DNA of 64,000 nucleotides from Cirrosporium novae-zelandiae (Eukaryota), in NCBI GenBank assembly GCA_026023565.1, contig JAPETS010000014.1, forward strand, positions 558,001-622,000, given 5' to 3'. Below the pieces are notes generated by a model. The model was not told the DNA's origin, ran no database searches, and saw nothing but the letters and a program-made list of their open reading frames with translations. Positions 18,104-22,926 of this stretch are shown in pieces (the first letter of the stretch is position 1; each line of letters begins with the position of its first letter). The translations under genes were made by a program, and so were the position numbers.

Positions 18104-20304
18104 AGCGATGACAAGAATTAGCGCAGTACGGTCGAGTCCGATCCTTTAGGACCTTTCTGCCCTGGAGGAAGACGTGTTCTGAATGATGAAAATGAAGGAC
18201 GTCATACATAGGAGGGGACGTCGGAGCCTACAATTGACATTGACTAGGCTATCCATGGTGACGATAAAGCGTCGAGACCGTTGAAAGCTACAGCATATCG
18301 GCGCTCGTTCCGGTTGAAGACAAATCACTAAGCTACCACTGTCAGTATCATGATGGGGGTTTTGAACGTAGGACGAAGATAGAATAATTTCGCCTTGTCC
18401 ATACTGCACGGATGCCCAAAAGATATCGGTCATCATCATCCATGATTACGACTTTGTGCTTCATACTCATGCCCCAAGGCTGGGGTTAAGCTGCAACCTT
18501 AGGGCCTTAGGCATCTTAGGCAGAAGCCAACCCCGACCCAGACTGGTTTTTTAGCAGTTATGCAACTCAACTTAATCGGCAATCCAAATGACCGGGTTAA
18601 AGATGGCAGAATTTCTAACATTGTAGAATCTTATTGAATACAAAACATTTAGATGGGCATAATGGGCACGATGGGCAGGACGGTGTGTGGCTTGGATGAG
18701 TTGGCGATCATGCAGAATGCTTGTAGTTGCAGTAGACCAAGGTTGGTTACTTGATGGTGGTGACGAGCGAACATACCGATAATACGGGCATAGGTTGGGG
18801 TACTTTTCTGAATTCTCCAGGTACCGACTGGGAGCATTTTAGACTGTTTAGTTGATGGGAAATAAGTAGAAAATTCTAGAACCTTTTGGGAGTCTTGAAT
18901 TCTTGAATTCTTGAAAGAGTTGACATGCCGGGACTTGCAGGTTTGTCATGTACAGCAATCCATGATCAGTAAGTAAACCGAGTAAGATTTGTCTCTCTCT
19001 CAATATTTCCCAAAGGTGATGATTTGGGCAACACGAGGCCTTAGACTCTGGTTCTTAGTGTAGAGATTGCCCAAAAGGCCTAAAATTAATTAAAATAATG
19101 CAAGGGGTTCAGAATTATCTATTGTCTACTATAGTATTATTATTGTCTCTTGTCTCTTGTCTATTGCTTATTGCTTATTGCTTATTGTCGACTTTAGGAT
19201 GATGATGATGATGATGATGATGAATGTTACACCCATACCCATACCCATGACCCAAGGAGCATGAACCAGGCCCCCTTGTCATTGGATTTCCTTTGTTTTC
19301 TCCCTCATCTTTGGTCCTTTTTGACATTTCGCTTTCGGAACGGCCCTCGGTTGAGTGGAGTAATAACGACGGAAATAATTGTGACGGTCTCAGCCTTAAG
19401 AGGTCTAAGATGATAGGAAATAATTTGATGAAATCCAACTGGCTGATGATAATTTTAGGTGCAAGGTTTGAGTTGACCAGCTGTCAAATCCATGGATTCC
19501 TGTTAGATAGTTTTTCTGTTTTGGATTTGATCCGGATCCTTTGGGTCATTGCTTTCCATTAAGAGTTGATTAAAATCATTCAGACCTTATCCAGAGCAAC
19601 GGGCTTCCCTTCAAGCCTCTTACTCGAGTCAACTTGTAAACCTTCAGCCTCTTAACTAAGACAGCCTTGCAATTTCCCTGACATCGATCATCAGTATAAA
19701 AATAAAAGAAATCTATAGTTACTGAAAATACATTGTAAATAAACAGGGAAATAAATAAATAAACAAATAATAGTTAGTCAATTAATTAGTACATCCATCC
19801 TGAGTACGTACATACACAGACACAGACACAGACACATACACATACATAAAACTCTTATCAACTTCAAGAAAACAAAAAGAATACCTAATATCAAACCTTG
19901 AATTTTTAGGTCAAACCCATTGGTGAATTTGTTGTCATTTTTTTTGTGTGAAAGTGCACGTTGTAGGAGCCGGCGCGTCCTAAGCTACTGATTGTATATT
20001 CCTTCTCTCCCCCCCCAAAAATCAAACACCCCCAACCCCCAATTCTGCCGAGACTTACTTTGGGCAGCATTACTGTATTCAATCAATCAACCTCGACCTG
20101 AACACCGGTGAACTGTCCATATTCGTTTCATCGTCATTGTGGTCATTTTGACCCATTGTGACTTCCTGTCACCTTCTTACCTACCCCCCTCATCCCATCC
20201 CCCCCCCCACACAGCTTAGAGAAAAAAAAGCAAAGGGTTATGCGCTTGGTCGATTTCAACAACCTTCTTTCGTATTTCCACTAGGATCCCTCGTTCTACT
20301 GCAG

Positions 20305-20660
20305 GTAAGTCATACATTGCTGGGACTCGTAATTCCCCAAAGGGTACTCTGGATTCTCCCAAGTCAAACTGACAGCTCTCTGTGGGCGACCCTGTTTCTT
20401 AATAGATTTCTCCAAAATTGAAACCAATCGCGCAAACAAACAATTGACACCCCACTCGTACCCATCAAAGAAAAAACCGGTCGCGAAGCTGCAGCAGTAG
20501 TCTGTTCACTCTCCAACACCATTGATTTGATCCGTTCAAACACAATTGACTTCCAATTGGTCTTCCTTTCCACCCTGTTCCCCTCTACGATTACCCTCGT
20601 CTACGTTCGCAGCACGCCTGCGTGCTTGCAGATAGCTAATAAACTGGGCCCTGTTGGTAG
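20305..20660 (+). other. Candidate 5'-UTR intron of hapC
   Basis: CAG|GTAAGT donor at 20305, GCTAAT branch at 20635, TAG at 20660, all upstream of the hapC ATG; no transcript evidence. Confidence 0.35.
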
Positions 20661-20897
20661 TTGTTGGTACTAGTGGGATCGCTGTGCAATTGTACGACGG
20701 ATTCCTTGCGAGCCATACATTCCCGACGCTTGGTTCAATCTTGGTTTTGAGGCTGTTGTGAGGCCGTCGTAACGCAACCTGACGCGGAGCTGCATAGAAC
20801 TTGACACTTGAGGCCACAGTGACGTGGTCATTTGCCAGCAGAGCAGCCAACTATTCTTCACCGAGGCTGGCAACCGCTGCAAGTAGCCAAGTACATC

Positions 20898-22126
20898 ATG
20901 TCGGCCTCCCCTCCAAAGGAAGCGGAGGTGGAACAAGAACCGCAGTCGCACGACGAAGAGGGGCCCATGGAAAGGGATCCTCATACTGAGCAAGCACCAG
21001 GACTTAGCTACGAGTTCGAGGTCAAGGAGCAAGACCGATGGCTTCCGATTGCAAATGGTTGGTGGTCCACCTCTTACCTTATGCACCTTACCCGTCTTTT
21101 CATTTGAGCGTACCTTACTTCCGCTGCTGCACGATCGGAGAAGCTATGTTTACTGGATCGCTTCAACGAGCGTTGTTGTGTCTCGAGTGCTCATTCGTCT
21201 TTCTTATCAAACTACTTCTGCATCGCAGCGCAAGCTCGATGGTCAAGATTTCAAGGACCACTCAGAGATTGCAATGCCTCGCAACCCTGCCAGCTCCGTT
21301 TCACCCTCTCATCGACATGGAAGCAAATCGCATAACATTGCTTCTGATGCTAACATTCGAAACTTTGCTCCAGTGGCCAGAATTATGAAAACCGCCCTAC
21401 CGGACAATGCAAAAATTGCAAAGGAGGCAAAAGAATGCATGCAGGAATGCGTGAGCGAGTTCATCTCGTTCATCACCAGCGAAGGTACGTCGTTGCTCGC
21501 ATTGATTCTTTGATATCTACTAACCCAGGGTCGGTGGCGTCGGCAGCATCGGAAAAGTGTCAGCAGGAGAAGAGGAAAACGGTCAATGGGGAGGATATCC
21601 TCTTTGCCATGACCAGCTTGGGGTTCGAAAATTATGCCGAAGCGTTGAAAATATATTTATCCAAATATCGCGAAGTAAGACATTCCCTACAAGGGACCGC
21701 TGGTTACCATGACAAGGTAGCTGGCACCGTCCCCCTCCTCCCCTTTCCCCTCCTTTCCCCGTGTGAACTATACCCCTCTCCCTCCCCTTTTTCCGCCCTC
21801 TCATTCCTTTTGTCGTCTATATTTGAATAGACAAGTATCTGAACTATGAAATTGATGGGTGGTATGAGACACAATCCACGAGAGGGGAGAACCAGAACCG
21901 GCCCAGCAGCGGATACGGGGCAGGCGGCCCAGTCGTCAGCGGCGGCGGCGCGACCAGCACCAACGCTGCTCCATCCTCATCCTCCACAATCTACACGGGG
22001 CATGCCGAGAACAACAACAACCTACTAGGGACACAAGGCATCGAAGGCACGGAGCAAGACCCCGGCGCGTACGGTCAGGTGTATCCCGGCATGGTGGGGA
22101 CAAGCCACAATGGCGACGCATATTAA
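20898..22126 (+). CDS. hapC: CCAAT-binding complex subunit HapC/Hap3 (NF-YB), 218 aa; exons 20898-21057, 21374-21484, 21547-21674, 21869-22126
   Basis: [86 protein letters not shown] histone fold. The last acceptor is GAG, so that exon boundary is less certain. Confidence 0.96.
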
Positions 22127-22926
22127 GAATGGTGCCGTCTCTGGGGGGAAGGGTTATAGACAATTATAGCGAGCATCATTCTTTCGAAGAGAATTCCTGC
22201 TTTCATCTTCCCCAACCACGAGCGCGGTCGAGTGAGATGGAGAGTGGGGAGGGAGGTATTGGATAAGAATGGAAAAAAGAAAGATTGTTGGCATGTACGA
22301 ATGGGGAGGGATAATTTGCATTTGGTAAGTGTATAAGCTACTTGGAAACGTTCGTTTGTATGGAAGTTTGAGGGTTTGAAGTTTGAGGTATGAGGGTTAG
22401 AAAGAATGGCAATCATTGGGCGGTTAAATGGGATGTGCGCCTTTATCATTGTTGACTCAGATGTATTAATGTCAAGAATCATTCATCTTCATTATTAGTA
22501 TTATTAGTATTCCAGCAGGAAGATGATTGTTTGTGTAGTAAATAAAGCTGAAGATTTGTCGATAATTCTTTTTTGTTTGTTGGTGTAAGTAAGTACCTGT
22601 CTAGGTAGATAATTGGGGTGAGAGAGGGGGATTGTTTCGGTTCCCTGCGGAGATCTCTCAGGGCATTGTTGATTGTTGGTTGATTGCCGGATGATAGCCG
22701 GAAGATAGCCGGAGGATACCTGGGTACAGGACAGTCTGTACAGTACAATGGCCCGTCTCTTATCGATCATTCATTTATTTCTTTTCCTTTTCCTTTTCCT
22801 TTTCCTTTTCCTCCGATGCAAACCGCTTTGACAAGTTGCCCCGTGCACCTACGCCCTTTGAATTGGAAATGACATTAAATTTCTCCACATTTACATGCAG
22901 CTTAAGGCCTCCAATCTTTGTCCAAT

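Follow-up and report, generated by a model that had tools for sequence, protein, structure and literature searches.

The fungal CCAAT-binding complex (CBC) is usually treated as a fixed trimer with one HapC (Hap3, NF-YB) subunit. One-gene isoforms of a CCAAT-factor subunit are known from animals, where the splice isoforms of NF-YA and NF-YC alter the activation domains. In Candida albicans, two Hap3 versions, Hap31 and Hap32, are used by one fungus under different iron conditions, according to a review (PMC6652802). A further point of comparison is the HapE P88L lesion of Aspergillus fumigatus (PMC7266990; PDB 6Y39), in which the proline at the start of helix 1 is lost in the same register as in HapC (LPLARIKKVMK in HapE, LPIANVARIMK in HapC). 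That paper reports that helix 1 is lengthened in P88L, that affinity is lowered (116 vs 0.83 nM) and that loss of Pro88 cuts DNA bending from 68 to 9.3 degrees.

Here we describe hapC of Cirrosporium novae-zelandiae, in which the 3' third of the first intron probably serves as an alternative first coding exon of a second, shorter HapC form (we put the probability at about 0.8). Compared with chain B of PDB 4G91, this is the same gene with the same histone fold from VARIMK onward, but the short form is without 10 residues that the crystallised core includes. Whereas C. albicans uses two genes, here one gene carries two first exons, and in contrast to the animal NF-YA and NF-YC isoforms the exon swap alters the conserved histone-fold core of the B subunit. 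P88L is a point mutation in the partner subunit; hapC has a natural, conserved exon swap that places Asn at the corresponding position and Pro three residues later, and we hypothesise that the short form could have the same effect as P88L. Alternative first exons are a known mechanism; the HapC stretch is real, conserved and coding, and is probably an instance of it. Our literature search, with subscription papers and supplements outside its scope, returned no description of a fungal HapC isoform of this type. Iron, respiration and sterol genes would come under a further layer of control through a second HapC whose sole difference lies at the start of the fold, on the side facing the DNA; deletion of hapC removes both forms and complementation with a cDNA brings back only one.

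The window, a stretch of 64,000 nt, contains the single hapC (NF-YB) copy of the C. novae-zelandiae genome, the remaining PF00808 matches being other histone-fold genes. All hapC exons lie on the forward strand. Coding exon 1a (20898..21057) opens with the canonical start ATG at 20898 and comprises 53 codons and one base; its junction agrees with 13 intron-free contigs and with PDB 4g91_B. Intron 1 of the canonical mRNA (21058..21373, 316 nt) has the donor GTTGGT, the acceptor CCAG and GCTAAC at 21349, and its position is identical in 103 of 118 loci (the listed scan loci and the window), the other 15 being intron-free. Exon 2 (21374..21484; VARIMK...FITSE) is common to both forms. The acceptor of exon 3 (21547..21674) was picked by homology at 21546, an in-frame AG at 21528 being the one that would add 6 residues, and the GAG acceptor at 21868 of exon 4 (21869..22126, including the stop) was also picked by homology. 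The alternative exon 1b (21274..21373) encodes a Met, a Ser/Pro-rich linker and DANIRNFAP in 33 codons and one base, and is continuous with exon 2. Its end (21346..21373) is a dual-use stretch, in which the DANIRNFAP codons overlap two splice signals of intron 1, its branch point (GCTAAC, 21349-21354) and its acceptor. Translation from ATG 21274 would yield a HapC of 198 aa that has exons 2-4 in common with the 218-aa canonical protein and in which everything upstream of VARIMK would be swapped for the linker and DANIRNFAP. Intron 2 of the gene measures 62 nt, and across related loci the median length is 307 nt for intron 1 (n=56) against about 62 nt for intron 2 (n=99).

The first-pass annotation had drawn attention to intron 1 as stop-free in the exon 2 frame over its full 316 nt and as splitting LPIAN/VARIMK, and both points are correct. 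The coordinates also agree with its placement of ATG 21274 in the exon 2 frame, with the phase compatibility of AAG 21247 and CAG 21265 (which GAG 21187 shares) and with a stop on plain retention of the intron, at TGA 21105-21107. Dinucleotide shuffling (20,000 shuffles) gave an equally open intron in a fraction of 0.022 for the exon 2 frame and 0.065 for any frame; the open frame of the window taken alone is only mildly unusual and is weak evidence. The importance attached to openness of the whole intron did not carry over to relatives: since only 7 of 45 complete introns with a second ATG are open throughout in the exon 2 frame, the full openness of the window intron is incidental. The lengths of these 45 introns split 15, 13 and 17 among the three phases, and the frame that would be read on retention stops before the second ATG in 34 of them and runs through in 9. 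On sequence comparison, the relevant conserved part of intron 1 is its last 100 nt only, from ATG 21274 to 21373. We also noticed, post hoc, a second frame that is open across the whole intron (21008-21388, 126 codons; two-frame shuffle fraction 0.0006), whose ATG at 21239 lies within a TATGGTCA-like block that is common to lichen-like loci, where its phase is variable. Another frame is stop-poor in most relatives as well (open for 30 codons in 60 of 74 listed loci), presumably as a by-product of the Ser/Pro-rich linker.

Conservation of exon 1b was assessed in two ways. When residues 50-112 of P0001, the translated intron frame, were used as a protein query, 411 of 708 candidates were hits, and in all of the best 120, which were examined, a Met is followed by a Ser/Pro-rich linker of variable length, DANIRNFAP and VARIMK. 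The presence of the 15-residue intron-end stretch in other fungal Hap3 gene models, which the first-pass annotation had put forward, is thereby confirmed. This search selects for the motif and therefore gives its breadth, not its frequency. We also scanned metagenome contigs without this bias, using a degenerate pattern from exon 2 alone, and obtained at least 117 loci (118 with the window); these are mutually related, so that the counts are of non-independent events. An AG acceptor precedes exon 2 in 103 of the 118 listed loci. Loci with less than 150 nt of upstream sequence were dropped, as were loci that shared 90% of their final 100 nt with another, which left 74 distinct listed loci. Intron 1 ends in the frame of the 13-residue motif in 65 of them; 5 carry a diverged motif ending in GN-x-x-L and 4 carry neither. 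An in-frame ATG lies 30-48 codons upstream with no intervening stop in 60 of the 65 motif loci (33 codons in the window), and of the 5 motif loci without an ATG in the 49 codons scanned, 4 are open throughout. The second ATG has a start-like context, with a purine at -3 in 46 and C at +5 in 59 of 60 cases.

The pattern of substitution is that of a coding sequence. Over 18 independent close pairs, protein-guided alignment gave a dN/dS of 0.19; when the last 9 codons were left out, so that only the linker remained, the value was 0.23. Frame-blind DNA alignment of the same pairs gave a pN/pS for the linker of 0.36 in frame, against 1.39 and 1.58 out of frame, and linker mismatches of 0.32 at third positions against 0.15 and 0.13 at the others. 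Upstream of the second ATG, in the 5' part of the intron (21058..21273, forward strand), the same alignment showed no codon signal (pN/pS 0.88-1.19); this part, which in relatives contains conserved short blocks, is a putative internal promoter and leader of the short form. Of the linker indels, 12 have a length divisible by three and 13 do not, the corresponding counts before the ATG being 13 and 54, so that indels lend only modest support to coding. Within the motif of the 65 listed loci the Ile codon is ATT in 30, ATA in 18 and ATC in 17, Arg stands at its position in 58 with all six codons in use, and the Asn, Phe, Asp and second Ala codons vary silently.

Two codons, GCT (63/65) and CCA (65/65), are nearly fixed, and these are the ones that fall within GCT-AAC, the branch point, and CCA-G, the acceptor. 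This is what would be expected if the end of the intron were a non-coding element, be it an extended branch point, a protein-binding site or an RNA structure, and the peptide a by-product of mis-annotation. We find that reading hardly credible, as the codons for Ile, Arg, Asn, Phe and the second Ala change synonymously without restraint, the codon signal spans the entire linker, there is no Rfam match and the whole window intron folds no better than shuffled sequence (z -0.63). In 6 of 65 loci the codon is even AGA or AGG, so that an AG falls between the branch point and the acceptor. A conserved intronic RNA structure, which the first-pass annotation had suggested as an alternative, was not borne out either: in 37 of 45 intron 5' parts (up to 260 nt) the mean folding z was -0.12, with 2 below -2, and an Rfam scan of 20000-22600 gave 4 matches, none near the gathering score and none on the intron proper. 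Conservation across relatives is of the codon type and extends well past the branch point and acceptor. Together with the dN/dS values it supports the hidden, conserved HapC isoform with an altered start of the histone fold that had been proposed for the window, and, judged by these comparisons, exon 1b is almost certainly under protein-level selection across filamentous ascomycetes. Two further ideas were dropped: nested inverted repeats seen by eye, each arm of which is kept without its partner in other clades, and, on inspection only, a stwintron or microexon, as the canonical junction requires no extra residues.

Indirect evidence bears on the transcripts. Of the 105 non-NCBI hits of the protein search, 103 run into intron 2, and proteins found only in Logan or JGI appear to have been called without regard to introns. 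Four such proteins (P0036, P0082, P0126 and P0172), however, begin at the intronic Met and have introns 2 and 3 removed; because 102 of 103 genomic loci have intron 2, the remaining locus being cut off, they look like cDNA. P0219 and P0220 are similar but less sure. P0036 is identical from the junction to the end to the canonical P0186 (both Logan only), and since four short-form proteins are without introns 2 and 3 and one of them matches the canonical form after the junction, both transcripts probably exist. We consider it very probable from these sequences that transcripts with exon 1b and with introns 2 and 3 spliced out are made; alternatively, the cDNA-like short-form proteins may stem from retained-intron or partly spliced RNA. 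Among intron-free contigs with the QDRWLPIAN junction in the scan loci, none of 13 was of the short form and all were canonical, so the short form is probably a minor or conditional species. Among the 120 proteins listed from a further search, which was designed to place such proteins at the top, 76 fuse both first exons and 37 have only the short form. The hidden exon would account for a frequent annotation fault, namely hapC models that are fused or short-only.

How the short form may be made is less certain. Its mRNA most likely starts at a promoter within intron 1, to which we give about even odds. An internal start is favoured because a retained-intron mRNA would present many ATGs to a scanning ribosome (counting all frames, a median of 5 in exon 1a, followed by a median of 3 within the intron) and because ATG density is halved near the second ATG, with 19 in 2700 nt for the last 60 nt against 106 in 6929 nt (P 5e-4, with loci not independent). 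The same ATGs count against a route in which intron 1 is retained in a full-length mRNA, exon 1a acts as an upstream ORF, the intronic ATG is reached by re-initiation or leaky scanning, and splicing efficiency is the switch: the ribosome would have to pass the first ATG as well as those of exon 1a and of the intron, and 44 of 45 introns contain at least one. Several features nevertheless suit retention. It is equally compatible with the cDNA-like proteins; the retention frame stops ahead of the second ATG in 34 of 45 introns; donors are frequently unlike GTAAGT (GTTGGT in 10 and GTTAGT in 10 of 56); and a branch-point-like TGATT[TC]G block, a possible decoy, lies 23-61 nt past the donor in 25 of the 27 introns that have it. 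The occurrence of the same 7-mer in the opposite orientation in 12 loci, by contrast, suits a DNA element over an RNA one, and we regard retention as an unlikely route.

Routes through other splice sites are, taken jointly, less probable still. Splicing of exon 1a to an internal acceptor would produce a longer fusion of LPIAN, linker, DANIRNFAP and VARIMK, which is what many public models show (the 76 of 120 listed proteins) and what AAG 21247 and CAG 21265 would permit by phase in the window; several Pleosporales-like loci also have a CAG 2-11 nt ahead of the ATG. Yet the acceptors of the models are scattered between 21 and 99 residues upstream, so the fusions are probably products of gene finders that stitched two coding signals together. 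The nearest YAG is of variable phase and L060 is without any, several loci have a stop only 2-4 codons ahead of the ATG, no branch-point consensus precedes the two AGs of the window, and a conserved Met in start context would serve no need. The internal acceptors noted in the first-pass annotation thus do not hold up as a conserved route, a YAG lying within 40 nt of the ATG in 34 of 45 introns, about as often as by chance and in variable phase, and we judge this route improbable. A little less probable again is splicing from a donor in the 5' leader to an AG just ahead of the second ATG, which would skip exon 1a, so that the phase of the AG would be irrelevant. In 21 of 55 loci, among them the window, a possible GC donor (GCA-N-GT) does stand in the 40 nt that precede the first ATG, and the window has CAG/GTAAGT near 20305. 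The GC motif, however, is absent from the other 34 loci and lacks an exon-side AG, the 20305 donor is unmatched in relatives, and AGs ahead of the second ATG are not enriched.

The 5' part of intron 1 contains short elements of its own. C[AG]AATCA, in either orientation, is found in 35 of 45 introns where 1.5 are expected, and in 4 of 36 control leaders upstream of the first ATG, while perfect CCAATCA occurs in none of the 45. The 7-mer is missing from intron 1 of the window, in which a CGAAT core (21190..21199, reverse strand) lies about 80 nt before the second ATG, weak evidence as a 5-mer. CGAAT is a measured CBC site in the promoter of another gene (PMC4954732). Like the absence of the 7-mer from the window intron, two observations count against the internal start: L025 and L109 have lost the frame and kept C[AG]AATCA, and the distance of the 7-mer is steadier relative to the donor than to the second ATG and therefore suits a decoy branch point. 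A further non-coding block, ACTGG..TCGCTT (21150..21164, forward strand), is aligned between loci, its pattern being present in 14 of 45 introns with 0.5 expected.

The histone-fold core of HapC from VARIMK on (PF00808) matches chain B of 4G91 with an E value of 2.4e-46. The helix-1 start LPIANVARIMK is intact in the canonical form and not intact in the short form, which has an 11-residue replacement. In the alignment to chain B, FAP stands in place of IAN, and IRN in place of the WLP before it. Two helix-1 positions stay alike, Phe replacing Ile at one and Ala being retained at the other. Pro88 of HapE is the P of LPLARIKK (6Y39 vs 4G91) and has the same register as the P of LPIANVAR in HapC. 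The short form probably still pairs with HapE, because it retains most of helix 1 and the whole of helices 2, 3 and C. We think it close to an even chance that, having lost the helix-1 LP cap equivalent to HapE Pro88 (WLPIAN to RNFAP), it binds or bends DNA less well and dampens the CBC. For yeast Hap3, a 7-residue DNA-binding stretch is cited in a review (PMC6652802). Monomer structures of P0036 predicted from the single sequence and from a set of 33 sequences had mean pLDDT values of 49.9 and 51.8, too low for the models to count as evidence.

The short form might instead be active in its own right, as a variant with a separate partner or separate targets; DANIRNFAP would then form a binding surface, and the Ser/Pro linker would be phosphorylated. 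Nine near-invariant residues exceed what a loss-of-function decoy needs, S/T-P sites occur in 56 of 60 linkers, likeness is preserved at the two helix-1 positions, and Candida uses its two Hap3 paralogues under different iron conditions (PMC6652802). Part of the invariance is, however, imposed by splice signals, and one lineage has a quite different motif; we see the active variant as a serious rival, with the odds somewhat against it. A dampening short form would also permit a more speculative proposal, which we rate as rather unlikely in full: the CBC would regulate itself, in that it would bind C[AG]AATCA, a near match to the CCAAT box, within intron 1 of hapC and so fire the internal promoter; the resulting HapC would take HapE without the helix-1 cap proline, and the arrangement would go far back among filamentous ascomycetes, with a loss in the Aspergillus-like lineage. 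If true, it would be a built-in CBC damper, a natural counterpart of the HapE P88L lesion that was lost in the very lineage in which the CBC has mostly been studied.

Named carriers of exon 1b among the matches listed include lichen fungi, Botrytis, Hyaloscypha, Fusarium, Podospora, Xylaria, Colletotrichum, Ascochyta, Aureobasidium and Exophiala, besides others (a Chaetomium gene model, like those of Podospora, has the motif), and there is no Aspergillus or Penicillium name among the protein matches listed. L025 and L109, in which the frame is lost, have IMKLALP like the Aspergillus PDB chain, as do two motif-bearing loci. Loss of exon 1b in the Aspergillus-like lineage may be taken from these sequences as a lead. 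The diverged motif ending in GN-x-x-L has an in-frame ATG 39-54 codons upstream and a dN/dS of 0.23 on 3 pairs, and a homolog search with it returned 3 JGI proteins among 3 candidates. The diverged exon (L005, L010, L048, L050, L071, L107 and L114) carries two basic clusters, LKR...PKRIKL, which we take to resemble a bipartite nuclear localisation signal.

Other features of the gene may be recorded here. In intron 2 of the window (21485-21546) only 4 nt separate the branch point ACTAAC from a CCAG (21528); this acceptor is in frame, lies 18 nt before the homologous one and would insert 6 residues resembling GSVASA in helix 2. Intron 3 (21675-21868) is long (194 nt), and its unusual GAG acceptor is common to 11 of 44 loci; earlier AGs at 21830 and 21835 would yield a truncated or an 11-residue longer tail. 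In relatives, intron 3 has a recurring block TGAAC...TGATTGG...GAG, in which TGATTGG, found in 7 of 44 loci, is a perfect reverse CCAAT box that doubles as the branch point; the window has TGATGGG. In L077, an intron-free locus known from a single contig, exon 3 is joined 14 nt before the usual exon 4 acceptor, at the branch-point A of related genomic loci, and the frame of the tail is shifted. L039, L066, L042 and L067 have an apparent extra short intron within exon 1a, directly before EVKEQDRW. Upstream of hapC, positions 20240-20375 contain a 14-codon ORF (ATG 20240), then CAG/GTAAGT and a possible 70-nt intron, unmatched in relatives. The last 80 nt before the first ATG (20819-20897) are conserved (83% to L027/L052). 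Of 46 loci, 19 have TGACGT in the 120 nt of leader next to hapC; CTGCA-N-GTAGCC occurs close to the ATG, and several Dothideomycete-like leaders also contain C[AG]AATCA.
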